Below are positions 11,348-53,979 of a stretch of 64,000 bases of DNA, in pieces. Every line of letters starts with the position of its first letter. Position 1 is the stretch's first letter. Made by a program: the position numbers and the translations under genes. The stretch is from Candidatus Nanohalobium sp. (GTDB taxonomy: Archaea > Nanohalarchaeota > Nanosalinia > Nanosalinales > Nanosalinaceae): NCBI GenBank assembly GCA_042217555.1, contig JBDGSL010000002.1:79343-143342 (forward strand), in the 5' to 3' direction. The notes beneath the pieces were generated by a model, which did not search any database, was not told where the DNA came from, and saw only the letters and a program-made list of their open reading frames with translations.

Positions 11348-12103
11348 ATGGAGCTACCAAACCAGTTCGACGAGAGGATAAGGCCAGACATCATCAAGAG
11401 AGCCAACCTTTCAATCAAGAGCAAGAAAAGACAGGACTACGGGTCAGACCCGGAAGCAGGACTGCGACACGTAGTATACTGGAAAAAACAGCAAAACGCA
11501 TACAGAGGGCAGAAAGGAAAGGGAATGTCTCGTACTCCTCGAAAGATCCGTGTCAGAAGAGGAAGTCAGATCTATGGAGACGGAGCAGAAGCACCGAACA
11601 CGATCGGTGGCAGAACCGCCCATCCTCCAAAAGCAGAGAAAAACTTTGAAGAAGAGATCAACGACAAGGAAAGAAGAAAGGCAATCAGGTCAGCAATCGC
11701 AGCAACAGCAGACCGGGAACTTGTCTCAGAGAAACATGAGTATGAAGGAGAAGTCCCGATTATCGAGGAAGGAATCTCAGGGATTGAAAAGACACAGGAA
11801 CTCAAGGAGAAGCTCGAAGACCTTGGACTTGAAGACGAACTTGACAGAGTGTCCGAGAAGAAAGTTAGAGGAGGTAAAGGAGCCAATCGTGGAAGAAAGT
11901 ACGTTAGAAAGGTTGGCCCGCTTGTAGTAACAGCGGAAGACGAAGGAATCTCAGATGCGGCAAGCAACCTGGCAGGTGTAGACCACTCCCAGGTAGATCA
12001 GCTGAACGCCGAAAAACTTGCTCCAGGAGCAGAACCAGGAAGACTGGTTGTATGGAGCAAAAAAGCAGTAGAGAAACTTGAAGAAGACGGTATGTACCAA
12101 TGA
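11348..12103 (+). CDS. rpl4: 50S ribosomal protein L4
   Basis: IRPDII, LAPGAEPGRL; operon order. Confidence 0.97.
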   Translation: MELPNQFDERIRPDIIKRANLSIKSKKRQDYGSDPEAGLRHVVYWKKQQNAYRGQKGKGMSRTPRKIRVRRGSQIYGDGAEAPNTIGGRTAHPPKAEKNFEEEINDKERRKAIRSAIAATADRELVSEKHEYEGEVPIIEEGISGIEKTQELKEKLEDLGLEDELDRVSEKKVRGGKGANRGRKYVRKVGPLVVTAEDEGISDAASNLAGVDHSQVDQLNAEKLAPGAEPGRLVVWSKKAVEKLEEDGMYQ

Positions 12104-12159
12104 AAACGAAAACACAAGGTTTTCTAAGATTCAGCAACACGCGAGGTGTAACTGAATAA
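12100..12159 (+). CDS. Bridging mini-ORF (19 aa, MKTKTQGFLRFSNTRGVTE)
   Basis: ATGA overlap with rpl4 stop; TAATG overlap with rpl23 start. Confidence 0.6.
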   Translation: MKTKTQGFLRFSNTRGVTE

Positions 12160-12428
12160 TGGAAGTTGACAGAGCATGGGAAGTTATCGAAAATCCACAC
12201 ATGACAGAACAGGCGATGGACATGATCGACGAAGAAAACAAACTCGTCCTCATGGTGGATCTGGAAGCAGACAAAGGCCAGGTAGAGGACGCAGTAGAGA
12301 CTCTGTTCGATGTGGATGTTGAGAAGGTCAATACTAACATCACGTCTTCCGCAAAGAAAAAAGCATACGTAAGACTAAGTCCAAGTGACAGCGCGATGGA
12401 CGTCGCGACTGAGCTTGGCATGATGTGA
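12159..12428 (+). CDS. rpl23: 50S ribosomal protein L23
   Basis: ENKLVLMV...KVNT...KKAYVRL. Confidence 0.97.
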   Translation: MEVDRAWEVIENPHMTEQAMDMIDEENKLVLMVDLEADKGQVEDAVETLFDVDVEKVNTNITSSAKKKAYVRLSPSDSAMDVATELGMM

Positions 12429-12438
12429 GGTAGGTAAT

Positions 12439-12492
12439 ATGACTAAAATCGAAGATTTTATGGGTTACCAGAAACTCGGTGAGTTTCGATAA
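12439..12492 (+). CDS. Bridging mini-ORF (17 aa, MTKIEDFMGYQKLGEFR)
   Basis: Own SD (GAGGT); TAATG overlap with rpl2 start. Confidence 0.6.
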   Translation: MTKIEDFMGYQKLGEFR

Positions 12493-13193
12493 TGGGATCG
12501 CCACTAAAACAGCAGAGAAGAGGAAAGGGAAGTCCAAACTTCCAGGCCAATAAGAAAGGCAAGGGAGTAACGGATCACAAAAACGCAGAAGTAACGGGAA
12601 CAGTAGTAGACCTGGTCCACGACCCGGCCAGGACAGCACCGGTAGCAAAAGTAGAGTTCGAAGACGGAGAAGTCAGAAACATTCTTGCACCGGAAGGCCT
12701 ACAGACAGGAGACGAAATTCAGGTCGGAGTATCAGCACCTGTAGAACCCGGAAACGTACTTCCACTAGGAGAAATCCCGGAAGGAGTACCAATCAACAAC
12801 ATCGAACTACAGCCAAACGACGGAGGAAAAATGGTTAAGGCATCAGGAACATACGCATTCGTCGTAACACAGGAGCAGGACGGAGTAAGAATCAAGCTTC
12901 CAAGCGGTGACTTCAAGAAACTCGATACTGAATGCAGAGCAACAGTTGGAAAGGTTGCAGCCGGCGGAAGAAAAGACAAGCCGCTTGTCAAGGCCGGAAA
13001 CGCATCCAAGGCTGCAAAGGCTCGTGGAAAACAGTACCCAACTGTCTCCGCAGTAGCCATGAACGCAGTCGACCACCCATTCGGTGGATCAGCAAAACCA
13101 GGACAGCCAAAGACAGTTTCCAAGCACGCTTCACCAGGAAGCAAGGTTGGAAACATCGGAGCCAAACGCTCCGGAAAGAAGAACAACGACTAG
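12492..13193 (+). CDS. rpl2: 50S ribosomal protein L2
   Basis: HDPARTAP, AMNAVDHPFGG. Confidence 0.98.
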   Translation: MGSPLKQQRRGKGSPNFQANKKGKGVTDHKNAEVTGTVVDLVHDPARTAPVAKVEFEDGEVRNILAPEGLQTGDEIQVGVSAPVEPGNVLPLGEIPEGVPINNIELQPNDGGKMVKASGTYAFVVTQEQDGVRIKLPSGDFKKLDTECRATVGKVAAGGRKDKPLVKAGNASKAAKARGKQYPTVSAVAMNAVDHPFGGSAKPGQPKTVSKHASPGSKVGNIGAKRSGKKNND

Positions 13194-13203
13194 GTGAACC
13201 CGC

Positions 13204-13263
13204 ATGACTAAAATCAAAGATTTTATGGCATTGCAGAAAACCACTGAGGTGGTTTTCGAATGA
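13204..13263 (+). CDS. Bridging mini-ORF (19 aa, MTKIKDFMALQKTTEVVFE)
   Basis: SD AGGTGA; ATGA overlap with rps19 start. Confidence 0.6.
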   Translation: MTKIKDFMALQKTTEVVFE

Positions 13264-13637
13264 CAGAAGAATTCACTTACAGAGGAAAAACACTCGAAGA
13301 ACTCCAGGACATGAGCCACGACGAACTAGCACCGCTTATGGATGCCCGGGCTCGCAGAAAACTGGAGAGAGGTCTTCGAGAAAACGAGGAAAAACTACTG
13401 GAAAAACTGGAGGACAAGGACCGTGTCCAGACACATCTCAGAGGAATGATCGTCCTTCCAGAAATGGTAGGAAAGACTATCGAGATCTACAACGGGCAAG
13501 GATTCGAAGAGGTTGATATTGAAGAAGAGATGATTGGCCACTACCTAGGAGAGTTCGCAAAAACCAGGAAAGAAGTATCACACAGCGCACCAGGACTCGG
13601 TGCTACAAGATCTTCAAAGCACGTACCGCTTAAGTGA
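13260..13637 (+). CDS. rps19: 30S ribosomal protein S19
   Basis: FTYRGK, MIGHYLGEFA. Confidence 0.98.
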   Translation: MTEEFTYRGKTLEELQDMSHDELAPLMDARARRKLERGLRENEEKLLEKLEDKDRVQTHLRGMIVLPEMVGKTIEIYNGQGFEEVDIEEEMIGHYLGEFAKTRKEVSHSAPGLGATRSSKHVPLK

Positions 13638-13642
13638 TTCAA

Positions 13643-13750
13643 ATGCGAAAATCAGAGATTCGAAAATTCGGAGAATTTTCTCCAAGAAATTCCTCACGGA
13701 ATTTCGTTTTCAGCCTTCCCAGAAACTCACAAGGTGAGTTTCGGCAATGA
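13643..13750 (+). CDS. Bridging mini-ORF (35 aa)
   Basis: Stop-free frame across the spacer; ATGA overlap with rpl22 start. Confidence 0.55.
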   Translation: MRKSEIRKFGEFSPRNSSRNFVFSLPRNSQGEFRQ

Positions 13751-14169
13751 ACAAGATCGAAACAGAACCACATCAGGCAAGAGCACTCGGCAAGAACATG
13801 CCGATCTCCTGGAAAGACGCAACAGAAATCGGCCGCTTCATCAAGGGAGACACGGTCGAAAAAGCAGAGAGAAAACTGGAAAAGGTAACGGAAGAAGAAC
13901 TCGCCGTACCGTACACAAAGTTCGACAGCGACGCAGGCCACCGAAGCGGAGACGGAGACTCAGGAAAATATCCTGTCAAAGCAGCAGAACACATGCTTGA
14001 AGTCGTACAGGAAGCAGCAAGCAACGCAGAACACCAGGGACTTAACCCGGGATCACTGCATGTAGAAAACGTCATCACAAACAAAGGAAACGAGTACGCA
14101 ACCCCTGGACGGTTTAGGGGAGAGAAAACCAAGGCAGCACATGTCAACGTAATCGTAGGTGAAAAGTAA
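13747..14169 (+). CDS. rpl22: 50S ribosomal protein L22
   Basis: ISWKDATEI, GKYPVKAA, NAEHQGL. Confidence 0.96.
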   Translation: MNKIETEPHQARALGKNMPISWKDATEIGRFIKGDTVEKAERKLEKVTEEELAVPYTKFDSDAGHRSGDGDSGKYPVKAAEHMLEVVQEAASNAEHQGLNPGSLHVENVITNKGNEYATPGRFRGEKTKAAHVNVIVGEK

Positions 14170-14273
14170 TGAATCGAAAACGAAAATTCAGTGAATTTTC
14201 TCAGAGAAAATCCTCAGGGATTTTCGGATCAGAGATTTTCTCAGTGATTTACACGCAAGGTGAAAATCAATAA
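14169..14273 (+). CDS. Bridging mini-ORF (34 aa)
   Basis: TAATG overlaps at both ends. Confidence 0.6.
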   Translation: MNRKRKFSEFSQRKSSGIFGSEIFSVIYTQGENQ

Positions 14274-15427
14274 TGCAAGAGAAACAGTTTATTGAGAAGG
14301 GAGCAAGGAAGGTAAGGCTTGATGAGTTCTTCTCGGATGAGCTTGCAGGAGCAGGTTATTCCAACTGTGAAATTGAGAGGACTCCTACAAGTACCAAAAT
14401 CGTAGTACATGCACAGAAACCAGGACTGGTTATAGGACGTGGTGGAAGCAGGATTCAGGAACTGACTGAAGATCTTGAAAGCGAGTTCGATTTCGAGAAC
14501 CCGCAGATCGAGGTCAGCGAGATCGATGAACCGGATGCAGACGCAAAGGTCGTGGCGAAGAGTATTGCAGACTGGCTTGAGAAAGGAGGCCACGCCAAAC
14601 GTGTAGGATACACATACGTCCGCAGGATGAAAGAAGCAGGTGTTATCGGAGCAGAGATAGAGATTACAGGAAAACTCTCCGGTAACAGAGGAAGAACAGA
14701 GAAGTTCTCCTTCGGATACGTCAAGAGATGTGGAGACACCTCAAAGAAAAACGTTCAGAAAGGATACGAGCTAGCCCGTACCAAACCAGGTGCTATCGGT
14801 GTCAAAGTAAGGATCATGAAGGACATGCCAGGTTTCCTTCACAGAGACGTCGATGTAAGCGGTGAAGTCCTCCATGAAGTCCAGGAAACTGAGGAAGCAA
14901 GAGATAAATCCACGAGGATTGAGGAAGTCGTCAGAGAAGCAGAGAATATGACTTCGGCAGAGCTTGAAAGAGCTATCGAGGAGAAGACAGAGGAAGTCAA
15001 GACAGACGACATCTCCAAGGAGGAAATCAGGGAAGCCTTCGACTCCGCTGACGCAGTAGAGAAACTGGAGGAAGAAGCTGAAGAAGTCGAAGAAGAAGCA
15101 GAGGAAATCATCGAGGAAGAAACAGGTGAAGAACAGGAAGAAGACGTTGAAGCAACTGAAAAGGAAGCTGAAGAAGTCAAAGAAGAGGCAGAGAAAGTTG
15201 CTGAAGAGACAGAGGATGAAGACGTAGAAGAAAAGGCTGAAGAAGTTGAGGAGGAAATGGAAGAAGTAGAAAAAGACCTTGAGGAAATCGTCTCAGGTAC
15301 GATAAGCGATGCCAAAGAGATGATCAACGAACTGGAGAATCCTGACTTCACAGCCCTGCTCGAGGCAGAGAAAGAGAACAAGGACCGTAAAACCTTCAAG
15401 GACTGGCTTGAAACCCGGAAGGATTAA
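14273..15427 (+). CDS. rps3: 30S ribosomal protein S3 with long acidic C-terminal extension
   Basis: KH motif PGLVIGRGG, GAIGVKVRI. Confidence 0.97.
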   Translation: MQEKQFIEKGARKVRLDEFFSDELAGAGYSNCEIERTPTSTKIVVHAQKPGLVIGRGGSRIQELTEDLESEFDFENPQIEVSEIDEPDADAKVVAKSIADWLEKGGHAKRVGYTYVRRMKEAGVIGAEIEITGKLSGNRGRTEKFSFGYVKRCGDTSKKNVQKGYELARTKPGAIGVKVRIMKDMPGFLHRDVDVSGEVLHEVQETEEARDKSTRIEEVVREAENMTSAELERAIEEKTEEVKTDDISKEEIREAFDSADAVEKLEEEAEEVEEEAEEIIEEETGEEQEEDVEATEKEAEEVKEEAEKVAEETEDEDVEEKAEEVEEEMEEVEKDLEEIVSGTISDAKEMINELENPDFTALLEAEKENKDRKTFKDWLETRKD

Positions 15428-15452
15428 AAGAGCTGAGAGGTGAAACCAAACC

Positions 15453-15641
15453 GTGAAAGCAGAAGAACTAAGAGAGAAGAGCGTATCCGAACTGAAGGAA
15501 GAACTTGGAAACCTTCAGAAAGAACTCGTACAGCAGAGAGGACAGATCGAGGCCGGAGGATTCGCTGACAGCCCGGGAGAGATCAAAGAGATGAAGAAAA
15601 CCATTGCAAGAATCAAAACAGTTCTCAACGAACGCAACTAG
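15453..15641 (+). CDS. rpl29: 50S ribosomal protein L29
   Basis: KAEELRE...KKTIARIKT; GTG start. Confidence 0.95.
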   Translation: MKAEELREKSVSELKEELGNLQKELVQQRGQIEAGGFADSPGEIKEMKKTIARIKTVLNERN

Positions 15642-15647
15642 ATACTA

Positions 15648-15755
15648 ATGAACGAAATTCACAGAATTTCTGGAATCAAAGGCCTTTCAGGCCTTCTGCA
15701 ACCTAGAAACCTGAAAGGTTTCGGAACTGCAGAAAATCGGGAGGCCGATTTTTGA
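15648..15755 (+). CDS. Bridging mini-ORF (35 aa)
   Basis: Stop TGA directly abuts the sui1 ATG. Confidence 0.5.
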   Translation: MNEIHRISGIKGLSGLLQPRNLKGFGTAENREADF

Positions 15756-16061
15756 ATGTCAGAGACCTGTCCAAAGTGCGGAATGCCTGAAGATCTTTGC
15801 GTCTGCGACAGCATCGCACGTGAAGATCAACAGATTACAGTAAAACTCGACTCAAGAAGCTACAATAAAGAGATGACAGTAGTTGAAGGCCTTGAAGAAG
15901 GATCAGAAATAGACGAACTGGCCTCGACACTGAAATCCCAACTTGCCTGCGGAGGAACAGCCAAGGAAGGCCACATAGAACTTCAGGGCGACCACAGAAG
16001 AAGAATCGTCGACATACTGGAAGACGAAGGCTTCTCACGAGAAAACATCGAAGTCAAATAA
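15756..16061 (+). CDS. sui1: Translation initiation factor SUI1 (aIF1)
   Basis: CPKCG..DLCVC, LACGGT, IELQGDH. Confidence 0.97.
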   Translation: MSETCPKCGMPEDLCVCDSIAREDQQITVKLDSRSYNKEMTVVEGLEEGSEIDELASTLKSQLACGGTAKEGHIELQGDHRRRIVDILEDEGFSRENIEVK

Positions 16062-16254
16062 ATCTTCGACACATTTTTACTTCTCCATTTTCTCCGTATT
16101 GAGTCTCAGTAGCATGACTTACTGATTGGGGGCAGCGATTTTTAGCTTTTCTAAAATTGGAATATAAGGTTTGAGGACAGGCTTGAGGGAATATTTGATT
16201 ATGTTGAGGTAGTAGATGAAGATAACTTCCTTGTTGTCAGGGCTGTGAAGTAGT

Positions 16255-16578
16255 TTACCTGTTTCTCTCGTGTTTTCTGGCAAACTCTTGCCAGTTGTCT
16301 ACAATTTTCTGGTATGCCGACCAGTAGTCCAGATGCTCTAGAGGAACTTTGTCGTCCTTGAAGGGGTGATCCTGGAACTTTAGGTCGATGTGTACAAATC
16401 CGTGTGCTGTGTCTAAAGTCACTACTTCCTCGTTTTCCTCTGTCTCAGGATTCCTGCAGACAAGAGTTATGCAGAAGTCTTCTTTTTCTTCAACGTCTTC
16501 TAGTTTATAGTCTGGCCTGTAGACGACCTCATATGCTTTGCCTTTAAACTGTCCCAGAGATAAGGAGTCGCTGGTCAT
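16255..16578 (-). CDS. Putative TumE/DUF7718-like toxin (start uncertain)
   Basis: DTAHGFVHID motif; divergent from an HVO_A0114-type HTH gene. Confidence 0.55.
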   Translation of the reverse strand: MTSDSLSLGQFKGKAYEVVYRPDYKLEDVEEKEDFCITLVCRNPETEENEEVVTLDTAHGFVHIDLKFQDHPFKDDKVPLEHLDYWSAYQKIVDNWQEFARKHERNR

Positions 16579-16689
16579 TGCCGATTTTCCCTCTAAATGT
16601 TGTTTGTAATACATCATTGATAAAGTGTTGAGGTCAGACATCATCACTTATTTAAGCTTTCAGCAACCACATTCCATATAGTGGCGGAA

Positions 16690-17061
16690 ATGGAGACTAC
16701 TACTGCAGAATCTGAAATAGATGTGGAAAAAGAGGGGTCGAAATCCTATGTTGGTGAGGACACGCTCGAATTTGTCAAAGAAGTTATTGAGAACAACAAA
16801 GACGTAAGTACTCACGTCATACCTGCTGAACTTGCCAGGAAGATAATGACGGAGAAAAGAATAGAGATTATAGAAACTATCAGAGAAGAGGAAATAGAAT
16901 CCAAAAGAGATCTGGCCAGAAAAGTAGACAGAGACATCAGTGTAGTCTCTAAAGACCTCAAAGTACTCTGGAAATACGGCATCGTCGAGTACAGGGAAGA
17001 AGACAATAACCGGAAGATACCGGAGATCACAGCCGAAAAAATAATAATAGAGCCTCTGTAA
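16690..17061 (+). CDS. HVO_A0114-like HTH DNA-binding protein
   Basis: TEKRIEII...SKRDLARKVDRDISVVSKDLKVL. Confidence 0.75.
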   Translation: METTTAESEIDVEKEGSKSYVGEDTLEFVKEVIENNKDVSTHVIPAELARKIMTEKRIEIIETIREEEIESKRDLARKVDRDISVVSKDLKVLWKYGIVEYREEDNNRKIPEITAEKIIIEPL

Positions 17062-17070
17062 AAACAATGT

Positions 17071-17593
17071 ATGCCGGGCGCAGTATTTCTAGAAGGCGAC
17101 AAAGTCAACCTCAGAACAGTTGAGGAAGAGGATCTGGAATTTATCAGAGATGCCTATAACCATCCTGAGGTTTGGCCTTGGCTAACTCATCAAGGTCCTC
17201 AAAACTTGGAGCAGGAGCGAGAATTCTTCGAAAACGTTATCTGCAGTGATGATCAGATCAACCTGGCGATTTCCGACGAAGAGACTATAACGGGTTTGAT
17301 ATCTCTCGTTCCGAAAGATGAGGACTGTAGCAGAGATAGGTATCTGGATTCATCCTGACTACCACGGAAACGGGTTTGGCACAGAAGCATCTGAACTCTT
17401 GGTAAAGTACGCCTTTGACCACAGGAACTACCACAAAATCGTGGCCCGTGCAATTGAGTCAAACACAGGATCTCAGAAAATCTGGGAGAAACTGGGGTTC
17501 CAGAAAGAAGGAGAACAAAGAGAGGAAATGTACAGAGACGGCAAACACAGAGACGTCTACTACTACGGCCTCATAGAACACGAGAGAAATTAA
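17071..17593 (+). CDS. RimJ/RimL GNAT acetyltransferase, frameshifted near 17320
   Basis: Two ORFs form one protein: VNLRTVEEEDL / EIGIWIHPDYHGNGFGTE...N..SQKIWEKLGF. Confidence 0.85.
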
Positions 17594-18193
17594 ATGAGAA
17601 ACAAAGTGAAGAAAGGCTATGAAGAAGGAGATTATGAATCTGATTACAGGGAAGGCAGGGACGTAAGGCCTGAAGAAAAAGATTTTTTCGACTCCCTTTC
17701 AGACCTGACAGGAGGAGATAAACTACTGGATTTAGGCTGTGGGACTGGAGTTCCTTTCGACAGGTATCTCTCAGAAAAGGGTTGGAAAGTTACAGGCTTT
17801 GATATCGCTGAAACTCACGTGGAAAAAGCCAGGGAAAACGTACCTTCTGGAGAGTTTAGACAGGGAGACTTCTTTCAACTGGACTTTGAAGAAGGCAGCT
17901 TTGACGCTGTAGTCAGCTTCTACGCTATATTCCACATTCCCAGGAAACAGCATTCTAAACTGCTTGATAAGATAAGCAGATGGGTGAAACAAGACGGTGC
18001 TATTTTGATTACCATGGGAGCAGAAAAAATGGATATGATGGAAGGAGACATAGGAGGAGAGAAAATGCTGTGGAGCTCATACTCAGCAGAAAAGAACAAA
18101 GAAATAGTCAAAGAAGCAGGCTTCAACATAGTTAGCTCATATGAGGAAGACTGGAGAGAAGAAACACACCTTTGGATCCTAGCAAAACCATGA
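17594..18193 (+). CDS. Class I SAM-dependent methyltransferase
   Basis: LLDLGCGTG, FDAVVSFYAIFH. Confidence 0.92.
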   Translation: MRNKVKKGYEEGDYESDYREGRDVRPEEKDFFDSLSDLTGGDKLLDLGCGTGVPFDRYLSEKGWKVTGFDIAETHVEKARENVPSGEFRQGDFFQLDFEEGSFDAVVSFYAIFHIPRKQHSKLLDKISRWVKQDGAILITMGAEKMDMMEGDIGGEKMLWSSYSAEKNKEIVKEAGFNIVSSYEEDWREETHLWILAKP

Positions 18194-18227
18194 TAAAAAC
18201 AAAATAATTCTCACATCATTATACTAC

Positions 18228-18506
18228 ATGCCACGAACACCTGAAAACCTGCCAAGACACGAACTGATCGGATTGGAAGCAGAAGTAGAGAAGCATCCTG
18301 ATTCCAACAAAGAAGGTATCTCGGGAGAAGTACTGGATGAAACCCGTGACATGCTGAGGATAGGCGATAAATGGGTGGAGAAAAAAGGCACTACTTTCCT
18401 GTTTGAACTGGGTGAGAAGAAGGTTCGTATCGAAGGCGATATCATCGATAAAAGGCCGGAGGACAGGTTGAAAATGAAGATGCCTGGTAAATGGGAAAGT
18501 GTCTAG
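18228..18506 (+). CDS. rnp1: Ribonuclease P protein component 1 (Rpp29)
   Basis: HELIGL, GEVLDET, RPEDR; conserved position before rps17. Confidence 0.95.
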   Translation: MPRTPENLPRHELIGLEAEVEKHPDSNKEGISGEVLDETRDMLRIGDKWVEKKGTTFLFELGEKKVRIEGDIIDKRPEDRLKMKMPGKWESV

Positions 18507-18551
18507 TCCCTGTCATTACTGATTTAATATTCGGCGAACAAGATTTTTACC

Positions 18552-18827
18552 GTGGCAGAGTCTGAAATTGTCTCGTCTGAGGATACTCTTGGCGGTGAGC
18601 CACGGATTGAAGGCGCTAGAATCGGTGTTTCGCACATCGTCCAGTACTATGAGAGCGAGTGGAGTATCGAAAAGATTTCCCGGGAGCTGGACCTTGAACC
18701 TTTGGGGGTCGTGAAAGCTCTAGAATACTATTACAAGAATCTTCAGGAGATCCGAGGTATAATCAGGGATCGTAAAAGTCGTGGCATTTTGTTTGGAGAT
18801 GAAGAGGCGTTAGTGGAGAAAGCTTAG
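18552..18827 (+). CDS. DUF433 protein
   Basis: LGGEPRIEGARIGV...ALEYY. Confidence 0.85.
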   Translation: MAESEIVSSEDTLGGEPRIEGARIGVSHIVQYYESEWSIEKISRELDLEPLGVVKALEYYYKNLQEIRGIIRDRKSRGILFGDEEALVEKA

Positions 18828-19220
18828 ATGAAGTGATGTTTAGGGAGAGGTTGTGTAACTTGATTTTTCTCTGCAGCTGCTGAAAGATTTATCAGCAGGG
18901 CCGAATTATATTTGTTCGTGGAATTGATTGTAACTCCGCATGGAGAGGAAGATTTAGATTCGCTGGAGAAGACAGGAAGCCTGGGTAGGATAGCGAAAAA
19001 GATTAATGAGATAGAGGGGAAGTTGAGCAAGGTTTCGATCCTGAAAAAGTAGTTGAAAAGCGGACAGGAGGTACGTGGCATCCTATTCTACAGCAAACAG
19101 TAGGAGACTATAGGATATGGTTTATCGAGGGTGGAAAAACCAAGAAAGGTGATGAAGACAAACTATATTTGATCAGGGTATTGACCAAGCCAGAAGCATT
19201 GAAACTACAAGGTGTAGAAG

Positions 19221-19349
19221 TTAATCCAGATATTTATCTTTAATATCGCTCCAGTTCTTACCTTCGCCGCTGCCGACCGACTTCAAGGCCTCGATAGTTT
19301 TCTCTGCCTCTCTTCTCACATCTTCCGCCACCTTCACAGTTTCAGGCAT
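19221..19349 (-). CDS. Small antitoxin-like ORF or remnant (42 aa)
   Basis: MPETVKVAEDV...; SD AGGTGG upstream. Confidence 0.35.
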   Translation of the reverse strand: MPETVKVAEDVRREAEKTIEALKSVGSGEGKNWSDIKDKYLD

Positions 19350-19383
19350 TTCAATCCACCTATGTCCTATTTTGGTATAAAGA

Positions 19384-19614
19384 CTTAAACTTCTTACTGT
19401 CTTCCACCATCAGGGCTTGCACCCTTTTTAAGAGTTGTCTTCTTTTTTGTGTTTACGGCCTTTGGGTCGTGGATTTGGGATTCCTGCTGAAAGTCGCTTT
19501 CGAGCGAAACTGCAGATAGGGGTCCGGCTGAAAGTGGAAAACCTAGTTTTTCCTTGATGGTCGGGTTTCTATGCTTTTTTTCAGCAGGAGTGTTCACGAG
19601 GTGAAAAACGAATA
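19384..19614 (+). promoter_or_regulatory. Promoter and structured leader upstream of rps17
   Basis: TTAAA box at ~19385; 11-bp stem 19482-19492/19579-19589; internal hairpins. Confidence 0.6.
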
Positions 19615-19887: not shown

Positions 19888-19994
19888 AGATTTCCGCAGG
19901 AAATACTTCTGGCCACAGATTCGGAGAATCTGTTAATAGAAGTTCTGAGCAGAAGAACTTCGGCAGAAATCACCTCAGAGGTGGTTTCGAATGA
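19884..19994 (+). CDS. Bridging mini-ORF (36 aa)
   Basis: ATGA overlaps at both ends. Confidence 0.6.
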   Translation: MKISAGNTSGHRFGESVNRSSEQKNFGRNHLRGGFE

Positions 19995-20392: not shown

Positions 20393-20445
20393 TGAATAAA
20401 ATCGCAGATGTTAAGACTAGCCGGAAACCGGAGGTTTTCAACTAA
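20392..20445 (+). CDS. Bridging mini-ORF (17 aa, MNKIADVKTSRKPEVFN)
   Basis: TAATG overlaps at both ends. Confidence 0.6.
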   Translation: MNKIADVKTSRKPEVFN

Positions 20446-22272: not shown

Positions 22273-22493
22273 GTTATGAGAAGGTTTTAGACCAGATCAA
22301 GCACAAGGAGGGTAAGAGAAAGAAGTTTGAGAAGAATAACTCTCCTAAGGAAAGAGACTACGGAAAATCCAAGAAAGAATGCAGAAGATGCGGTAGAACA
22401 GGTAGAGGAGTTATCAGCAAGTACGGACTTAACTACTGCCGTCAATGCTTCAGAGAAGTGGCCGAGGAGATCGGCTTCAAACAGCTTAAATAG
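22269..22493 (+). CDS. rps14: 30S ribosomal protein S14
   Basis: CRRCG...YCRQCFRE. Confidence 0.96.
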
Positions 22494-22505
22494 GTGAGCC
22501 GAAAG

Positions 22506-22568
22506 ATGACAAGAGAATACGGAAACAAGTTTTCTAATCTAGAAAACGCCGGAGGCGATTCCCAGTGA
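22506..22568 (+). CDS. Bridging mini-ORF (20 aa)
   Basis: SD AGGTGA; GTGA overlap with rps8 start. Confidence 0.6.
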   Translation: MTREYGNKFSNLENAGGDSQ

Positions 22569-23595: not shown

Positions 23596-23927
23596 GTTTT
23601 GAGAGACAGGACAAGCACAAGAACAACAAACTGAAAGATAAATCCTGGAGAAGCCCCGACGGAGGGCATTCCAAGGTAAGACTTGAGAAAAACGGAGCTG
23701 CACCCAAACCCAAGATAGGTTACAGGGCTCCCAGCGAGATAAGAGGAAGACATCCCTCAGGATACGAAGAAGTACTGGTACACAACACCGGCGACCTGGA
23801 AGAGATAGAGGAAGGAGAAGCAGCAAGAATAGCGTCCAAGGTCGGTGGAAGAAAAAGAGAACAGATAATAGAAAAAGCAGACGAAGAAGACATCAAAGTC
23901 CTCAACAGAGGTGAACAGTCAGAATGA
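23592..23927 (+). CDS. rpl32e: 50S ribosomal protein L32e
   Basis: FERQ..WRSP.G.HSK, HPSGY, VLN. Confidence 0.95.
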   Translation: MSFERQDKHKNNKLKDKSWRSPDGGHSKVRLEKNGAAPKPKIGYRAPSEIRGRHPSGYEEVLVHNTGDLEEIEEGEAARIASKVGGRKREQIIEKADEEDIKVLNRGEQSE

Positions 23928-23992
23928 TTGATTCTGACTTTGCAGAAGATTCTCTAAAGAATCTTCGAACCGAGGTGTTTTCGAATGACTGA
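23924..23992 (+). CDS. Bridging mini-ORF (22 aa)
   Basis: ATGA overlap upstream; 8-nt ATGACTGA overlap with rpl19e. Confidence 0.55.
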   Translation: MIDSDFAEDSLKNLRTEVFSND

Positions 23993-24987: not shown

Positions 24988-25088
24988 TCGAAAATCAGAG
25001 ATTTTCTGGACTCGAAACCGGAACGGTTTCTATGAGTACAGAATCCGTTGGATTCGAACATGCAGAAATTCTAGGTGATTTCGAATGA
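24984..25088 (+). CDS. Bridging mini-ORF (34 aa) flanked by a 16-bp direct repeat
   Basis: ATGA overlaps at both ends; AGGTGATTTCGAATGA at 24972-24987 and 25073-25088. Confidence 0.65.
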   Translation: MIENQRFSGLETGTVSMSTESVGFEHAEILGDFE

Positions 25089-26082: not shown

Positions 26083-26130
26083 CCGAAAATCGAGAGATTT
26101 TCTAAAAAATTCAACACACAGTGTTCAACA

Positions 26131-26184
26131 ATGCGAAATTCAAAGAATTTCTGTATTACCAGAAGCACAGAGGTGCTTCGATAA
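26131..26184 (+). CDS. Bridging mini-ORF (17 aa, MRNSKNFCITRSTEVLR)
   Basis: TAATG overlap with rpl15 start; starts 48 nt after the rpl30 stop. Confidence 0.45.
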   Translation: MRNSKNFCITRSTEVLR

Positions 26185-31513: not shown

Positions 31514-31669
31514 GCCGGGGTGACTGAGTCTGGCTAAAAGTGCCAGCCTGGAAAACACCACTTGTCTAAGCGTATGCGAGAAAAGTGGTTTGAGAAAATC
31601 TTTGATTTTCGTACCAGTCAGCTGGTGGCCCATAACCGGGCCTCCTGGGTTCAAATCCCAGCCCCGGCG
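31514..31669 (+). tRNA. tRNA-Ser(GGA) with 66-nt intron (31554-31619)
   Basis: Acceptor GCCGGGG/CCCCGGC, CCAGC/GCTGG anticodon stem, long variable arm, CTGG/CCAG central BHB helix. Confidence 0.93.
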
Positions 31670-31722
31670 CTTTACTATACTTTTGCTGGGATTATAAGAG
31701 AAGCTCCAGTTCTGCGAGCTTC

Positions 31723-31845
31723 GGGTTCAAATCTTGAAATTCTCTATGAGAATTTCTGCTCCACAAGTTCCAGGAAATTGTTATCAGCAACTTGGAAAGT
31801 TGCGTCCAGAAAATCTCAACGAGATTTTCGTGTCCAGCCCCGGCG
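31723..31845 (+). repeat. Duplicated tRNA-Ser 3' end split by a 100-nt hairpin insertion
   Basis: GGGTTCAAATC (31723-31733) plus CCAGCCCCGGCG (31834-31845) rejoin to the 23-nt tRNA 3' end. Confidence 0.8.
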
Positions 31846-31892
31846 AAGTCTTTTCCCTAAACTATTTTAACCAGCTTCTGTCTTTAATTGGT

Positions 31893-34723: not shown

Positions 34724-34853
34724 AGTCCCCTGGGGTAGCGGTCAATCCTACCAGCTTCTGGACACCGGCTTCCTCTGTGAAGACGGTTTGAGAAGAGCTT
34801 GGCTCTTCGATTGGAAATGGCTGGTGACCCAGGTTCGAATCCTGGGGGGACTA
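34724..34853 (+). tRNA. tRNA-Gln(CTG) with 57-nt intron (34762-34818)
   Basis: AGTCCCC/GGGGACT acceptor, CCAGC/GCTGG stem, TTCT/GGAA central helix. Confidence 0.92.
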
Positions 34854-35807: not shown

Positions 35808-35978
35808 AGCCCCCTGGTGTAGTGGTCAAATAACTTGAGAACACCTCAGGTTAGGCAATTCATATCGGCCTTTGGAGCCTCAAGTTCTCTCCGCCTGGAG
35901 AGAACGAGGATTAAAGGAAACAACTGAACGTTTCCCCAAAGTTAGCCGGTGACCCAGGTTCGAATCCTGGGGGGGCTA
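35808..35978 (+). tRNA. tRNA-Gln(TTG) with two introns (D-loop 35830-35859; anticodon loop 35876-35943)
   Basis: Removing both introns gives a sequence colinear with tRNA-Gln(CTG); CTTT/AAAG BHB helix. Confidence 0.9.
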
Positions 35979-45148: not shown

Positions 45149-45157
45149 GTGAAAGAA

Positions 45158-48608: not shown

Positions 48609-48703
48609 TCCTCTTTTTCCTGTGAAGCAGAAGAATCTTTTTTGAGAGACCGGAAGGGGTTGGCCCGGACATCTTTTATTTCTTCAGACAGGTTAGTCTA
48701 AGC

Positions 48704-49711: not shown

Positions 49712-49769
49712 GCAACACAGTCAACCCTTTATAAAATTTAACCGAGGTTTCGTAGTTACGGGTTAATCC

Positions 49770-50252
49770 ATGTCTGAAACCAAAGAAATTGTAAGAATCG
49801 CAAGAACCGGGATCGACGGAACCAAGCCGGTAAGCAAAGCACTGACAGCCCTCAAAGGAGTAGGCGACATGTACGCCAACGCAATCTCCGACGCCATGGG
49901 CTACAGCGGCGAAAAGATAGGAAACCTCTCCGAAGAAAAAATAGACGAAATAGAGGAAACTCTGAAAAACCCGGAGAAAGTAGAGATCCCGGAATGGGTC
50001 AGAAACCGACGTAAAGACAGGGAAACAGGAGAAAACACACACCTGATAGAATCAGACCTGGAACTCAAAGAAGAGTTCGACATAAGAAGATACAAAGAGA
50101 TCAACTCCTACAGAGGATGGAGACACAAGATAGGACTGCCTGTAAGAGGACAGAAAACCAAGTCCTCGTTCAGATCCGGAAGCAAGATCGGAGTAGACAC
50201 GGCATCAATCAAAGAAGAAGCCGCAGGAGGCGGCGACGAAGGTGAAGAATAA
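49770..50252 (+). CDS. rps13: 30S ribosomal protein S13
   Basis: ALTALKGVG, YRGWRH..GLPVRGQ. Confidence 0.98.
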   Translation: MSETKEIVRIARTGIDGTKPVSKALTALKGVGDMYANAISDAMGYSGEKIGNLSEEKIDEIEETLKNPEKVEIPEWVRNRRKDRETGENTHLIESDLELKEEFDIRRYKEINSYRGWRHKIGLPVRGQKTKSSFRSGSKIGVDTASIKEEAAGGGDEGEE

Positions 50253-50305
50253 TGATCAAAAACATCAAACACAAACTGAAAGCTGCACTAGGCAGCCTGA
50301 AGTAG
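50252..50305 (+). CDS. Mini-ORF (17 aa) between rps13 and rps4
   Basis: TAATG overlap with rps13 stop; ends 26 nt before rps4. Confidence 0.4.
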   Translation: MIKNIKHKLKAALGSLK

Positions 50306-50331
50306 ACAACTTTTCCAGGTGATTTTTTGAA

Positions 50332-50877
50332 ATGGTAAAGAAACTGAAGAAACAGTACGAGACACCGAACACAGGATGGAGCGAAGAAAGAATCGAAAGA
50401 GAAGACAACCTGACGGAAGACTACGGCCTGAGAAACAAGAAAGAAATATACAAAGCACAGAGCAAACTGAGAGGTCTCAGAAGACAGGCCAGAAGACTTA
50501 TAGCAGAAGAAGACGAGGAAGGGAAGAAAGACCTTATAAACAAGACGAACAGTCTCGGACTTATCCGAGAGAACGCCGGACTTGAAGACATCCTCACACT
50601 CAACGTCACCGACATACTTGACAGAAGAATACAGAAAGCCGTGGAGAGAAGAGGACACGCAGAGACAGTCTGGGAAGCACGGCAGATGATCGTCCACGGA
50701 CACGTATACATCAACGGAGAAAAAGTCAACGTACCAGGATACCTCCTGACCCAGGAAGAAGAACAAGAACTTGAAGTAAGGATGCCTGAAACCGAAGGCG
50801 AAGAAGAACAGGAAGACACACCTGAAAACGAGACTTCAGAAGAAAACCAGGAAGAAAACCAGAGTGAAGAACAGTAA
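50332..50877 (+). CDS. rps4: 30S ribosomal protein S4
   Basis: YGLRNKKE, ARQMIVHGH. Confidence 0.97.
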   Translation: MVKKLKKQYETPNTGWSEERIEREDNLTEDYGLRNKKEIYKAQSKLRGLRRQARRLIAEEDEEGKKDLINKTNSLGLIRENAGLEDILTLNVTDILDRRIQKAVERRGHAETVWEARQMIVHGHVYINGEKVNVPGYLLTQEEEQELEVRMPETEGEEEQEDTPENETSEENQEENQSEEQ

Positions 50878-50900
50878 AAAAGGATCGAGGTAGATAAAAA

Positions 50901-51281
50901 ATGAAGAAAGGACTTGTACACATCTACTCAAGCTTCAACAACACTATAGTACACCTGACAGACGCAACAGGAGCAGAAACACTTTCCCGCATCACATCAG
51001 GACAGACAACAGACAAAGGCCGGCTACAGGGCTCAGCATTCCCCGCAATGAAAGCAGCAAAGAGAGTAGCTGAAGAAGCAAAAGAGAAAGGTATCGAAAA
51101 AGTCGACATCCGGGTCAGAGCACCTGGAGGACAGAAACAGAAGATGCCAGGCCAGGGAGCACAGCCAGCAATCAGAGCCATCTCACGCTCTGACATCGAA
51201 GTCGGAAACATCGAAGACGTCACACCGGTCCCACACGACGGATGCAGAGAGAAAGGCGGAAAACGTGGCAGAAGAGTCTAA
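50901..51281 (+). CDS. rps11: 30S ribosomal protein S11
   Basis: [17 protein letters not shown]. Confidence 0.98.
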
Positions 51282-51295
51282 AAAAGTGGTTATAA

Positions 51296-51868
51296 GTGAA
51301 ACTTGAAATCCTAAACGAGGAAGACGGCGTTCTGGAAGCACAGCTCAGCCAGGCCAACGACGCTATCGCAAACACACTCAGAAGAGCAATGATGGTCAAA
51401 GTACCAACACTCGCAATAAAAGAACTGCATATAAACCAGAACGAATCAGGTCTCTTCGACGAAGTACTCGCCAACAGGATGGGACAGATACCGTTCACCA
51501 TCCCGGAAAACGTGGACGAAGACGACACAGTCCACATCGCAGTCCAGCAGGAAGGCCCCGGTGTAGTACACGCAGAGGACATAAAGGCCGACAACGACGA
51601 AGCAGAACCGGTCAATCCCGACGCACTCATAGTAGAACTGAAAGAAGACCAGGAACTAACCCTTGAAGGCGAAGCAGTCCTCGGAACAGGAGAACAACAC
51701 GCCAAACACCAGGGAGGGACAGCCGGATACCAGAAAACAGACGACGGACAGTACATCTTCAGGATCGAATCAACATCCGGCTACACCAACGAAGAACTCC
51801 TCAAACAGGGAATCAAACAGGTCCAGAAAGAACTAGATCGTTTCGAAGAAGCAGTAAAAGAACTCTAA
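51296..51868 (+). CDS. rpoD: RNA polymerase subunit D (Rpo3), short form without the Fe-S domain
   Basis: ANTLRR...VPTLAI, G.GEQHAK. Confidence 0.95.
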   Translation: MKLEILNEEDGVLEAQLSQANDAIANTLRRAMMVKVPTLAIKELHINQNESGLFDEVLANRMGQIPFTIPENVDEDDTVHIAVQQEGPGVVHAEDIKADNDEAEPVNPDALIVELKEDQELTLEGEAVLGTGEQHAKHQGGTAGYQKTDDGQYIFRIESTSGYTNEELLKQGIKQVQKELDRFEEAVKEL

Positions 51869-52269
51869 AAAACACGTACACCTACCACACAGTTTCCTTC
51901 TCCCTATGGAAAACACAGTCAATAGAGAACCATTTCAGACAGAAATATACAGACATAGAAATCGACAAACTATACCGCACTACAGTCAGAACACACCCAA
52001 GAAGCAGAAAAACCGGCCGACAAACCAACTTCTAATCACGGGAAAAAGGAAATGTTTTTTCTGATCTTTACTCGTAAACAGAACCTGACCTCTCTCCTCC
52101 CGCCAGTTTGAACACACTAAAAAAACATGGCCGAAAAAACTGAAACAAAAACACACCCTGTACTATACCAGGGTCGAAGACTCTCCGAGTCTTCTCGACA
52201 CCAACAAATCTACGATTCGAAGACACTACAAAGTGTCTTATCCAAGAAGATTCATAGAATCTACGATTT

Positions 52270-52304
52270 GCCGGGGTAGCCAAGTTAAATCTTGCCAACC
52301 CGGC
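52270..52304 (+). repeat. Duplicate of the tRNA-Leu 5' 16 nt folded into a hairpin
   Basis: GCCGGGGTAGCCAAGT at 52270-52285 equals 52333-52348. Confidence 0.8.
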
Positions 52305-52332
52305 CGATCAGAGAAAAAAAATTAACATGCAC

Positions 52333-52482
52333 GCCGGGGTAGCCAAGTGGCCAAAGGCGCAGGACTTAAGAACCGAACTTCTGAAAGTTCGATCATCATA
52401 AACCGCACAAGGCGGCTTTCAGAAGGGAGAATCCGATATCCTGTCCCGCAGGGGTTCAAGAGTTCAAATCTCTTCCCCGGCA
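52333..52482 (+). tRNA. tRNA-Leu (probably TAA) with ~67-nt intron (52371-52437)
   Basis: GCCGGGG/CCCCGGC, CAGGA/TCCTG, variable arm; no clean BHB helix, so intron edges and anticodon are less certain. Confidence 0.82.
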
Positions 52483-52594
52483 TCATATTCTATAACTAGG
52501 AAGAATTTAACACAAAATCAATTCAGCAAGCTCTTTGCTGTCGTCCTGATCTCTAATGTCTTCCCTGGCCTCAGGCAGTAATCTGATCTCCACT

Positions 52595-52828
52595 TCACTC
52601 ACTCAGGTCTTCGATGAAACTGTCAATATCTTCTGTAGTTTCCAGGCCTTCCTTCTGAAGCTTCATATACCGGTAGAGAAGTTCAGGATCAATCTCTTCG
52701 TCTTCCTCAAGCTGATTCCGAATAGCCTGTCTAATATACTCTGAAGCACTCTTGTAGTCCTTCCTCTCAGCAGTCTCCTCAATCCGCTCCTTCAAACCAT
52801 CCGGAACATCAACACTAACCTTCGCCAT
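52595..52828 (-). CDS. RHH/CopG antitoxin followed by a truncated RelE-like remnant
   Basis: VSVDVP...YKSASEYIRQAIR; downstream EIRLLPEAREDI fragment. Confidence 0.8.
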   Translation of the reverse strand: MAKVSVDVPDGLKERIEETAERKDYKSASEYIRQAIRNQLEEDEEIDPELLYRYMKLQKEGLETTEDIDSFIEDLSE

Positions 52829-52933
52829 GATAATAGGTATGTAGGATAAACCTAATATTTCTTTCGCTTTACCTTAGCTCAACTCACTTTTTTCCTGGGG
52901 TTTAACCCCAAATGATTTTCCAGGACAGGAGAG

Positions 52934-53293
52934 TTGAAGAAAAGATTACTATCGAGGCAGTCGTGTACAGGGTTGAGGAAAGTGAAAATTATCCGGACAG
53001 CATCAGATACAGCTTTCAAGCCCACAGAGAAAGAAACACTGCTGAGATATGATAACTACACCAGGGTCGCGGCATCACAAACGGCTATAATGGAGAAAGA
53101 ACCGGACAGCATCACCGAACTAACTGAAATACTTGGCAGAGACATGAAAGAAGTACACAGCGACCTGAAACTGCTTGAGGAAAACAATATAGTTTTCTTC
53201 GAGGAACAAGGCCGAAAGAAACCGGTAATACCCTACAAAGACATAAAAGTCGACTACAGCATCACAAACAGCCTACTGACAGCACGGAGATGA
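52934..53293 (+). pseudogene. Fused remnant of a TumE-like toxin and an HVO_A0114-like HTH
   Basis: LLRYDN joined to PDSITEL...GRDMKEVHSDL. Confidence 0.55.
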
Positions 53294-53377
53294 AGGCGTA
53301 GAAAGCTTTACATTTCCCCATTCTCTGATTTTTCCCTAATCACAAAGTTTAATAGAATACACTGTCAAAGTAAATAC

Positions 53378-53623
53378 ATGCCTACTGTCAGTGTGAACGT
53401 GCCGGAGAAGATGAAGAGGAAAATCGAAGAACTCAGTGAGGAAAACATGTACAGCAACACCTCCGAGTACATCAGGGCTGCATTAAGAAAACAGATTGAG
53501 GAAGACAACGGTTTAACACCTGAAGAAGAGGAGATAGTTCTGGAGAGGATGGAAAGAATGGAGGAGCGTGAAGACAAAGGAAAAACGCTCGAAGAGGTTT
53601 CAGAGGAGTTAGGGATCGAATAG
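53378..53623 (+). CDS. RHH antitoxin
   Basis: TVSVNVP...YSNTSEYIRAALR, TLEEV..ELG. Confidence 0.85.
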   Translation: MPTVSVNVPEKMKRKIEELSEENMYSNTSEYIRAALRKQIEEDNGLTPEEEEIVLERMERMEEREDKGKTLEEVSEELGIE

Positions 53624-53979
53624 ATGGAAATAATCATCGAGCCAGAAGCTGAAGAAGACCTGAAAGAAATAAAAGAAGAACACAGGCCCTACATCAGAAA
53701 CCGGTTACAGGAGCTGAAGCAGAATCCGATAAACCGCGAAGATTCAGCCTATATACGCGTGAAAGGAAGGGAGGTATTCAAGTACGTCATGAAGCAAGGT
53801 TCTAAAGGTGGAAATCCGAAAACTCGCAGAGTTTTCTGGTTTTAAGAAATTCTTTTCCAGAATTTCGGGAAGACTATAGAGCAGTCTACGACATAGAGGG
53901 AGAAAAAGTAGAAGTAAAGGCTATCTTCCACAGAGACCAGGGATACGATAAGGAAGAACTGTCTGATAGAGTACGGTAA
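53624..53979 (+). pseudogene. RelE/ParE toxin interrupted by a ~56-nt hairpin insertion
   Basis: N-half MEIIIEPEAEEDL; C-half DYRAVY...IFHRDQGY in another frame. Confidence 0.8.

Follow-up and report, generated by a model that had tools for sequence, protein, structure and literature searches.

Very small palindromic repeats for which no enzyme is known, among them the Rickettsia palindromic elements (RPEs), organelle double-hairpin elements and GC clusters, have been a long-standing puzzle. Chytrid mitochondrial double-hairpin elements, yeast GC clusters and Volvox repeats are palindromes of organelle genomes, and we know of no enzyme for the mitochondrial double-hairpin elements. Repetitive extragenic palindromes (REPs) have a GTAG-type head, an imperfect palindrome and a single-copy RAYT (Y1 HUH) gene, and in transposed or mobile archaeal tRNA introns, related modules recur in different tRNAs. 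RPEs are small palindromic repeats of reduced genomes that lie in frame within unrelated protein genes, according to PMC10969869, and a title cited there describes a miniature inverted-repeat transposable element (MITE), Chunjie, that entered an operon and left it undisrupted. Here we describe a family of short hairpins in a 64-kb stretch of DNA from Candidatus Nanohalobium sp. (the window; 64,000 nucleotides, positions 79,343 to 143,342 of contig JBDGSL010000002.1, with all features below given on its + strand). The source genome (G000) has 1.31 Mb in 88 contigs and 45.8% G+C.

The window carries an archaeal ribosomal-protein gene cluster at 10.3-28 kb, and its uL2 is 74-80% identical to that of six nanohaloarchaeal metagenome-assembled genomes (L001-L006) and ~55% identical to haloarchaeal uL2, which identifies the source as a nanohaloarchaeon. 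An initial annotation, made from the sequence alone, had proposed that GAAA…TTTC micro-palindromes in this window form a dispersed, non-autonomous repeat or stem from a hairpin-generating process, in concept like REPs or RPEs. With moderate confidence, we read the hairpins as whole or partial copies of tiny non-autonomous DNA elements that make up a lineage-specific family.

Excess of GAA-type hairpins

When the window was scanned for perfect hairpins (stem of at least 7 bp, loop of 3-5 nt), 41 were found, compared to a mean of 6.9-7.3 in block shuffles within 60 or 120 nt, which keep the local composition including that of the spacers (30 shuffles per block size for the window and 10 for the genome). 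Hairpins starting with GAA (GAA-type) numbered 22 in the window, compared to a mean of 0.07-0.13 and a maximum of 1 in the block shuffles. Genome-wide, there were 463 perfect hairpins compared to 244-316 in five dinucleotide-preserving shuffles. Nearly all of this excess came from the GAA-starting class, with 124 hairpins (88 GAAA and 35 GAAG) compared to 5-12 in the dinucleotide shuffles and 0-6 per genome in the 10 local block shuffles. The stems followed the pattern G-A-A-[A/G]-[A/C]-[T/C]-[C/T], the commonest being GAAAATC (18), GAAACTC (10) and GAAGATC (6), and the 124 hairpins were flanked by C or A at position -1 and by T or G at position +1. Chains were also found genome-wide (42 doubles, 12 triples, 7 quadruples and 3 quintuples), in agreement with the chains of two to five noted initially, and perfect hairpins were recovered at every site that the initial annotation had named. 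It had treated a frequency equal to that of shuffled DNA as grounds for giving up its proposal; the observed frequency was far above both the dinucleotide and the block shuffles.

A chance by-product of base composition or codon usage is hardly conceivable. The coding strand is very A-rich and GAA and TTC words are common, but shuffled genomes contained only 0-12 GAA-type hairpins compared to 124, and the shuffled window a mean of 0.1 compared to 22. Around uL2 in haloarchaeal ribosomal-protein loci (L013-L020, 61-66% G+C), 10-17 perfect hairpins per 10 kb were counted, none or few of them GAA-type; these are raw counts.

The double-hairpin unit

Most hairpins and chains resolved into a unit of ~51-60 nt, made of two perfect hairpins of 7-9 bp with loops of 3-5 nt, with the consensus C-GAAR(M)(Y)(Y)…YTTC-TGG-n4-7-CA-GAAR…YTTC-G. 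Another type of linker (tccaa or tcaga) was recurrent. The flanks, linker ends and stem bases are alike on both strands, giving the unit almost two-fold symmetry at the DNA level. Paralogous units in G000 were 77-92% identical, with 82-90% identity over 48-59 nt among paralogues.

A covariance model (R1) was built from eight units sharing one hairpin-1 architecture, and it under-detects variants such as the tccaa-linker subtype. In G000, R1 gave 71 matches (both strands counted) at roughly 45 places at E ≤ 1. The set for model and profile searches held 61 genomes: G000, 36 others of its family (f1), and the rest from other families of the order plus four from outside it. At E ≤ 0.01, matches were found in 29 of the 36 other f1 genomes (0 to 39 matches per genome, none in the remaining 7) and in 8 of 20 genomes of the remaining order (3/10 in f3 and 5/8 in f4), with none in the two genomes of f2 and f5 or in the four archaea outside the order. 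Genera g16 and g17 were at zero copies, and G025, G008, G033 and G009 were high-copy genomes. Because the R1 distribution is confined to the order, the hairpin family is, as judged from these matches, old and lineage-specific, with a widely variable copy number. Rfam gave no match at gathering score in the 64-kb window.

The stems of 64 matches (63 distinct rows), which came from the window and from 33 relatives' loci, were aligned to R1. In this model-fitted alignment, 99.4% of 794 pair cells were standard-paired and 11 of 13 pairs had changed on both sides; two-sided changes numbered 93, and one-sided changes to G·U and unpaired cells 5 each. These values were not attained in any of 500 shuffles, and slid registers were only 24-78% paired, a further point against a by-product of composition. 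Typical structured RNAs do not show such a near-absence of G·U, and quasi-palindromes are known to undergo template-switch "perfecting". Since G·U pairs are nearly absent and the stems are Watson-Crick-perfect, these counts suggest that the palindromy is kept or regenerated at the DNA level, and RNA selection alone seems less likely as the keeper of the stems.

The same data bear on an explanation with no copied elements at all, in which hairpins are created locally and repeatedly by replication or repair, through template switching at GAAA/TTTC-rich sequence. Watson-Crick-perfect stems with both strands alike, the lack of a fixed target duplication at the borders and the existence of single hairpins and chains of variable length would all fit local creation, but we consider it improbable, since linkers and flanks are homologous at unrelated sites and across species (L006 and L003; G000 and G025; paralogues) and since whole blocks of 54-60 nt lie at clean empty sites, as described below.

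Hairpins GAAACTCC and GAAAATCC form the bounds of a longer repeat of four to five different hairpins, which was present at least twice in G000, at C12:32591-32692 and C1:15907-16036, the orientations being opposite. This repeat may represent a larger, composite form within the family that carries internal "passenger" hairpins.

Filled and empty sites

Spacers in the ribosomal-protein gene cluster were compared with those of nine related loci (L001-L007, L009 and L011). The L4-L23, L23-L2, L2-S19, S19-L22, L22-S3 and L29-SUI1 spacers and several later junctions were 49-114 nt long in the window, and the corresponding spacers in most of the nine loci were 10-25 nt, holding a Shine-Dalgarno sequence and the start codon only. 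In co-occurring relatives (DNA contigs from the same salt-lake samples, likeness of at least 85%), the window spacers were replaced by 7-22 nt. The relatives had units at other junctions: L3-L4 in L006, L22-S3 and S14-S8 in L003, L5-S14 in L004, and L2-S19 in L001 and L006. The L006 L3-L4 and L003 L22-S3 units were homologous including the linker (agcacacgt and agcacacgc, respectively, then agaaaa), with compensatory differences in both stems. Homologous copies thus occur at non-orthologous sites in different species, as would be expected of the dispersed non-autonomous repeat proposed initially.

Within protein genes, a double-hairpin unit was found at 53813..53869 in a RelE/ParE-like gene (53624-53979). 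This insert of 56 nt (53813/4-53868/9, register ±1; hairpins 53818-53836 and 53846-53866) leads to a frameshift and a TAA stop, and intact RelE-like homologues (G003, G005 and G020) read …GG(K/R)D(Y/F)RA… uninterrupted over the insert site. By-eye inspection, the only one made, found no bulge-helix-bulge motif (two 3-nt bulges and a 4-bp helix) at the borders in this gene. The name relE given in the initial annotation is only weakly supported: the gene follows an RHH antitoxin-like gene, but the intact homologue scored 16.8 bits on ParE_toxin, for which the cut-off is 23.

Two enzyme genes carried units in frame. An HhH-GPD DNA glycosylase gene (G000:C44) had a 60-nt unit adding 20 residues (RNSEGVSGAPENSDEEFSED), which was absent in 5 of 5 orthologues. 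An asparagine-synthase/diphthamide-synthase-like gene (G000:C1) had a 54-nt unit adding 18 residues (PKNSESSSESQKTQEEFS); an orthologous insert of 57 nt, its second hairpin in partial decay, was present in the congeneric G001, the insert was absent in 6 of 7 orthologues, and G005 had a separate unit elsewhere within this gene. The inserts seen in enzyme genes had only lengths that are multiples of three. In-frame inserts in coding genes are shared with the Rickettsia elements, to which the hairpins had been likened at the outset.

Another filled site lies within a mobile element. A unit ~60 nt upstream of the sole Y1 tnpA gene of G000, with tnpB alongside, is a 57-nt insertion in the loop of the left-end hairpin of an IS200/IS605 insertion sequence (IS); in an anchored comparison, the G001 copy of this IS was colinear without the 57-nt unit, the only border ambiguity being TTT. 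Paralogous loci upstream of two reverse-transcriptase genes provided a further pair, one filled with a unit and one empty. At the four best-defined sites, the border repeats were AA (RelE-like gene), TTT (IS end) and none clear (asparagine-synthase-like and HhH-GPD genes), and 1-6 variable bases flanked the C…G core.

These comparisons show that units have been inserted at many unrelated nanohaloarchaeal sites and that their presence at orthologous sites varies between species. A lack of empty orthologous sites was the other outcome that had been named as contrary to the initial proposal; empty sites were found in spacers, protein genes, the IS and the reverse-transcriptase loci.

Upstream of each of the two reverse-transcriptase genes (G000:C75:52121-53350 and G000:C38:800-1950) lies a frame that ends in …N(A)PSNT…IGFRC, with a hairpin after it, and at one of these loci the unit was inserted directly after the …IGFRC frame. 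This arrangement resembles a diversity-generating retroelement.

Spacers of the ribosomal-protein gene cluster

The L4-to-L23 spacer (12104..12158, 55 nt, hairpin 12108-12124) is ~15 nt in relatives and 14 nt in a co-occurring relative. It is spanned by a mini-ORF, MKTKTQGFLRFSNTRGVTE followed by a stop, which has overlaps with the stop of L4 (ATGA) and with the start of L23 (TAATG). The L23-to-L2 spacer (12429..12491) holds one unit (hairpins 12444-12460 and 12471-12487; R1 64.5 bits) with the mini-ORF MTKIEDFMGYQKLGEFR and a stop, and this unit was absent in 9 of 9 relatives, eight of which had short spacers and one (L003) an unrelated longer stretch. The L2-to-S19 spacer (13194..13259) likewise holds one unit (13209-13225 and 13236-13257; R1 67.3 bits) with the mini-ORF MTKIKDFMALQKTTEVVFE and a stop, and its Shine-Dalgarno GGTG lies within the 3' arm of hairpin 2. 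This junction was filled in L001 and L006, had no unit in L002, L003, L004, L005, L007 and L009, and in L011 showed a degenerate stretch that resembles a mini-ORF but lacks a perfect hairpin.

The S19-to-L22 spacer (13638..13746) has three hairpins (13662-13680, 13686-13705 and 13722-13742) with a 35-codon mini-ORF across them, and measures 7 or 22 nt in co-occurring relatives. The L22-to-S3 spacer (14170..14272) has two perfect hairpins (14182-14200 and 14206-14225), decayed ones and a 34-codon mini-ORF; in a co-occurring relative there was a different single hairpin, the spacer was 48 nt shorter and the mini-ORF was still in frame. The L29-to-SUI1 spacer (15642..15755), with four hairpins (15654-15752) and a 35-codon mini-ORF, is 11 nt in a co-occurring relative. 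Further downstream, three or four hairpins (19890-19961) and a 36-codon mini-ORF were found in the S17-to-L14 spacer (19888..19990), a degenerate unit with the mini-ORF MNKIADVKTSRKPEVFN and a stop in the L14-to-L24 spacer (20393..20444), and one hairpin (22529-22547) with a mini-ORF ending in a GTGA overlap in the S14-to-S8 spacer (22492..22564). Two 9-bp hairpins and no mini-ORF were present at the L32e-to-L19e junction (23917..23984), and three hairpins (24990-25055) with a 34-codon mini-ORF in the L18-to-S5 spacer (24988..25084). The L30-to-L15 spacer (26083..26183) contains a single hairpin (26085-26102) and a unit at 26135-26179 (R1 63.5 bits) with its own mini-ORF, MRNSKNFCITRSTEVLR and a stop; this unit has an 88% identical paralogue at G000:C12:31272-31328.

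Mini-ORFs were defined as ATG-started frames of at least 10 codons, starting no more than 20 nt from the upstream stop, with a stop of their own that overlaps or abuts the next start (ATGA, TAATG or GTGA). They spanned 12 of the 15 cluster spacers of at least 35 nt, compared to 0-5 (mean ~0.7) in 1000 spacer shuffles. In the spacers inspected, the loop or the 3' arm of the last hairpin carried GGTG or GGAGG, placed 7-12 nt upstream of the start codon. These features are those that would be expected if only coupling-preserving insertions survive. The repeats of the start-codon region in the spacers were ATGAC in the window, AGATGAGTAA in L001 and TGAGTGA in L006.

The mini-ORFs and the placement of the Shine-Dalgarno sequence also allow the view that the hairpins are functional RNA elements under selection, which hide the Shine-Dalgarno until the mini-ORF is translated and so enforce coupling, or act as processing or stability signals of polycistronic mRNAs and pre-tRNAs, and which spread because they are useful. 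Such a role would account for last hairpins that bear GGTG or GGAGG in their loop or 3' arm and for mini-ORFs in 12 of 15 spacers when shuffles gave at most 5 of 15, and it would be in keeping with stems that are paired over an order-level distribution and with two sense-strand G·U pairs in hairpin 2 of L001 and L006. We regard it as rather unlikely, because close relatives cope with 10-25 nt at the same junctions, 7 of 36 family genomes are without a match, G·U makes up only 5 of 794 cells, and units break one gene, sit in frame in enzymes and lie inside an IS end, where they would be of no service to translation.

The cluster is itself broken between SUI1 and S17 (16080-19600) by ~3.5 kb of accessory genes on both strands, with acetyltransferase-like and methyltransferase-like ORFs and an RNase P protein gene stranded mid-way; L004, L007 and L011 have short spacers at this place.

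tRNA genes and introns

Default ARAGORN and Rfam found no tRNA in the window, the standard tRNA and RNA finders being blind to its tRNAs because of the hairpin family. With introns allowed, ARAGORN found 42 tRNA genes in G000, 35 of them with introns of 33-268 nt, and those in the window were located at 31514-31670, 34724-34853, 35808-35978 and 52333-52482, so that the tRNAs called initially proved right. For comparison, intron-bearing tRNA genes are reported to number 15 of 39 in one cultivated relative and 4 of 38 in another (PMC10266531). Many of the G000 tRNA introns and inter-tRNA spacers contain family hairpins or whole units; tRNA genes with 150-nt flanks make up 1.5% of the genome and hold 28 of the 124 family hairpins.

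The tRNA-Ser(GGA) gene (31514-31670) has an intron of 66 nt (31554..31619) with the hairpin GAAAATC-ttt-GATTTTC at 31594-31610. This intron was absent in other organisms of the same samples (joint 31553>31620), and by eye its borders form CTGG/CCAG with AAA and TCA bulges. Three hairpins (31736-31756, 31787-31803 and 31809-31829) occupy 31734..31833, ~100 nt inside a tRNA-like fragment of a T-arm and 3' end, and a relative's contigs continue from 31733 directly into CCGGCCCCGGCGCT (loose contig ends; four records, agreement 0.65). A hairpin GAAGAGC-ttg-GCTCTTC lies inside the tRNA-Gln(CUG) intron (34792..34808), and three more (52176-52194, 52220-52239 and 52248-52262; 52176..52262) lie upstream of a tRNA 5' fragment and of tRNA-Leu(UAA) (52333-52482).

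Partial tRNA copies were seen beside intact tRNA genes: at 31671-31850, tRNA-Ser is followed by a Ser-like T-arm with 3' end, and at 52270-52310 a GCCGGGGTAGCCAAGT 5' piece precedes tRNA-Leu. Integration at tRNA genes may have left these copies behind.

The tRNA-Lys(UUU) gene (G000:C1:47962-48193 and orthologues L195-L199) had no intron in G001 and G009, an intron of 58 nt with one family hairpin in G003, of 74 nt in G025, and of 156 nt with a full unit in G000 and G002. The pre-tRNA was 98% identical between G000 and G002, with differing flanks, and the introns of G000 and G025 had the linker in common (ctgggtcataa and ctgggtcatta, respectively) and not the stems. As far as these six genomes can be compared, this indicates rapid gain, loss or replacement of the canonical-position tRNA-Lys intron within a genus.

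A second, non-GAAA intron module, RAACTT-ctga-AAGTTY followed by gatcatca, and AAGCCATG…CATGGCTT, was present in G000 at C15:16514-16855 (tRNA-Trp), C27:61643-61866 and C73:6421-6629 and in the window at 52374-52400; in tRNA-Trp it adjoins CTGATGAT. Haloarchaeal tRNA-Trp introns encode a box C/D-type guide, and the second module may be box C/D-like.

Candidate mobilizing enzymes

The initial annotation had suggested a linked HUH/RAYT-type nuclease, and this part of the proposal was not supported. G000 has one gene for a Y1 transposase (PF01797), and a family-like hairpin is found at the right end of its IS. Among the other 36 family genomes, PF01797 was present in only one (G001, with two stops) compared to 29 with units. 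Single-contig genomes with 17-25 unit matches were without PF01797, and two f3 genomes with PF01797 (G051 and G056) were without units. TnpB was above the cut-off in 13 of the 61 genomes and showed no relation to unit copy number, and RVT_1 was present in G000, G003 and G033 and absent in the unit-rich genomes G009 (24 matches) and G025 (39).

It is therefore very improbable that the units are miniature IS200/IS605 derivatives (PATE-like) or REP-like elements moved by a Y1 HUH transposase or RAYT. The unit ~60 nt upstream of the sole Y1 gene and the family-like hairpin at the right end would fit such an origin, but that unit is a 57-nt insertion in the IS end loop that is absent in the G001 copy, the unit does not have ends homologous to those of the resident IS, and neither the distribution of PF01797 (1/36 compared to 29/36) nor that of TnpB follows the copy number. 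The Y1/HUH link, drawn from the unit beside the sole tnpA, was rejected on the genome distribution and the empty site in the G001 IS. TnpB and the reverse transcriptase were also rejected as mobilizers, as neither tracks copy number. In searches limited to Y1, TnpB and RVT_1, no parent autonomous element with the same ends was seen.

Discussion

The interpretation that we favor, a family of very small non-autonomous DNA elements, would account for the hairpins in spacers, introns, coding genes and another mobile element. Copies would persist where the host can neutralize them. Those in tRNA introns and inter-tRNA spacers would be removed together with the intron or spacer. At tight operon junctions, the whole array would be translated as a mini-ORF from near the upstream stop to an ATGA, TAATG or GTGA overlap with the true start, and the last hairpin would supply the Shine-Dalgarno sequence, so that termination-reinitiation coupling would be kept. 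In useful enzymes, only inserts that are a multiple of three long would survive, adding ~18-20 residues such as RNSEGVS…EEFS, and the 56-nt copy would have killed a dispensable toxin gene. Neutralization had been suggested from the start, and the mini-ORFs over 12 of 15 long spacers agree with it; the copy in the RelE-like gene breaks the frame and is not neutralized. While drifting, the stems would be kept perfect through hairpins in single-stranded or cruciform DNA, or through quasi-palindromes being "perfected" by template switching, and the mobilizing enzyme would be one other than a Y1/HUH transposase, TnpB or reverse transcriptase.

Several observations weigh against this interpretation. 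No transposition event, intermediate or enzyme was observed, and there was no consistent target duplication, the four best-defined sites having a repeat of 0-3 nt. The first 5-10 nt of the spacer inserts repeat the downstream gene start and may represent either a target duplication or a piece of the element. The copies in G000 all differ from one another, with 92.5% identity over 40 nt in the best pair, and recent activity in G000 is therefore not supported. Perfect stems at 10-20% divergence would need either selection, which fits a function, or arm-copying repair. The alignment behind the pairing counts was fitted to a perfect-hairpin model and includes both strands at ~20 places, which favors paired cells; and single mismatches in transcripts of known direction (9 G·U compared to 9 A·C) do not distinguish an RNA-level constraint from a DNA-level one.

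A bolder extension, which we think doubtful, would make the units archaeal mobile DNA of a new class, able to move with no dedicated transposase and serving as raw material for the gain and enlargement of nanohaloarchaeal tRNA introns, a prokaryotic counterpart of the eukaryotic "introner" elements. On such a transposase-free route, hairpin-forming single-stranded or excised fragments may be captured at breaks, with template-switch repair perfecting the stems.

The family is widespread in an order of symbionts with ~1-Mb genomes, several of which are cultivable, and its clean filled and empty sites are found in spacers and introns, in coding genes and even in another mobile element. It would illustrate three ways in which a compact genome makes inserts harmless, namely splicing, a mini-ORF bridge that keeps coupling, and in-frame peptide loops, and it may bear on the growth and turnover of archaeal tRNA introns. 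Annotators should avoid calling either the mini-ORFs or the long "intergenic" gaps of these operons as genes or regulatory leaders.

Comparison with known systems

A full-text literature search, with subscription journals outside its coverage, found no description of this family in Nanohaloarchaea. The "hairpin-hinge-hairpin-tail" non-coding RNAs of Ca. Nanohalococcus were considered and set aside, since these highly expressed RNAs (PMC10266531) are 115-322 nt long and unlike the unit in sequence.

The REP/REPIN-RAYT systems share with the family short, dispersed palindromes that are often paired and foldable on either strand. In contrast to REPs, there is no GTAG-type head, the perfect stems are built on a GAAR base, and 35 of 36 related genomes, which mostly have units, lack the Y1 gene. 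MITEs are likewise non-autonomous, multicopy and AT-rich, form transcript hairpins and can sit inside operons. However, they have terminal inverted repeats of 4-30 bp, a target duplication of fixed length and a parent IS, whereas the ends here share only CGAAR/YTTCG, border repeats at the defined sites are 0-3 nt and no parent element was found. Mobile tRNA introns resemble the units in that introns come and go between close species (0, 58, 74 or 156 nt in tRNA-Lys of six genomes), but the units also occur outside tRNAs and, as judged by eye at the borders in the RelE-like gene, do not appear to form a bulge-helix-bulge themselves.

The closest likeness is to two other systems. Mitochondrial double-hairpin elements also have two adjacent short hairpins as the mobile unit, occur between genes, in introns and in coding and rRNA genes, and have had their mobility inferred from close relatives; they differ in belonging to the organelle genomes of eukaryotes and in sequence and composition, and to our knowledge the bridging of operon junctions by mini-ORFs has not been described for them. 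RPEs share the reduced genome, the lack of a known transposase, insertion between genes, in RNA genes and in frame in protein genes with the addition of a peptide segment, and a patchy distribution between species. They are ~100-150 bp, bacterial, with one long imperfect hairpin, and are described as encoding a conserved peptide, whereas the units are 51-60 nt, archaeal, with two short perfect hairpins, and are also found in tRNA introns and at operon junctions with mini-ORFs; size, fold and host domain set RPEs apart in this comparison by description. By analogy, the hairpin family appears to be a system that works like the RPEs or the mitochondrial double-hairpin elements and to be a member of neither.

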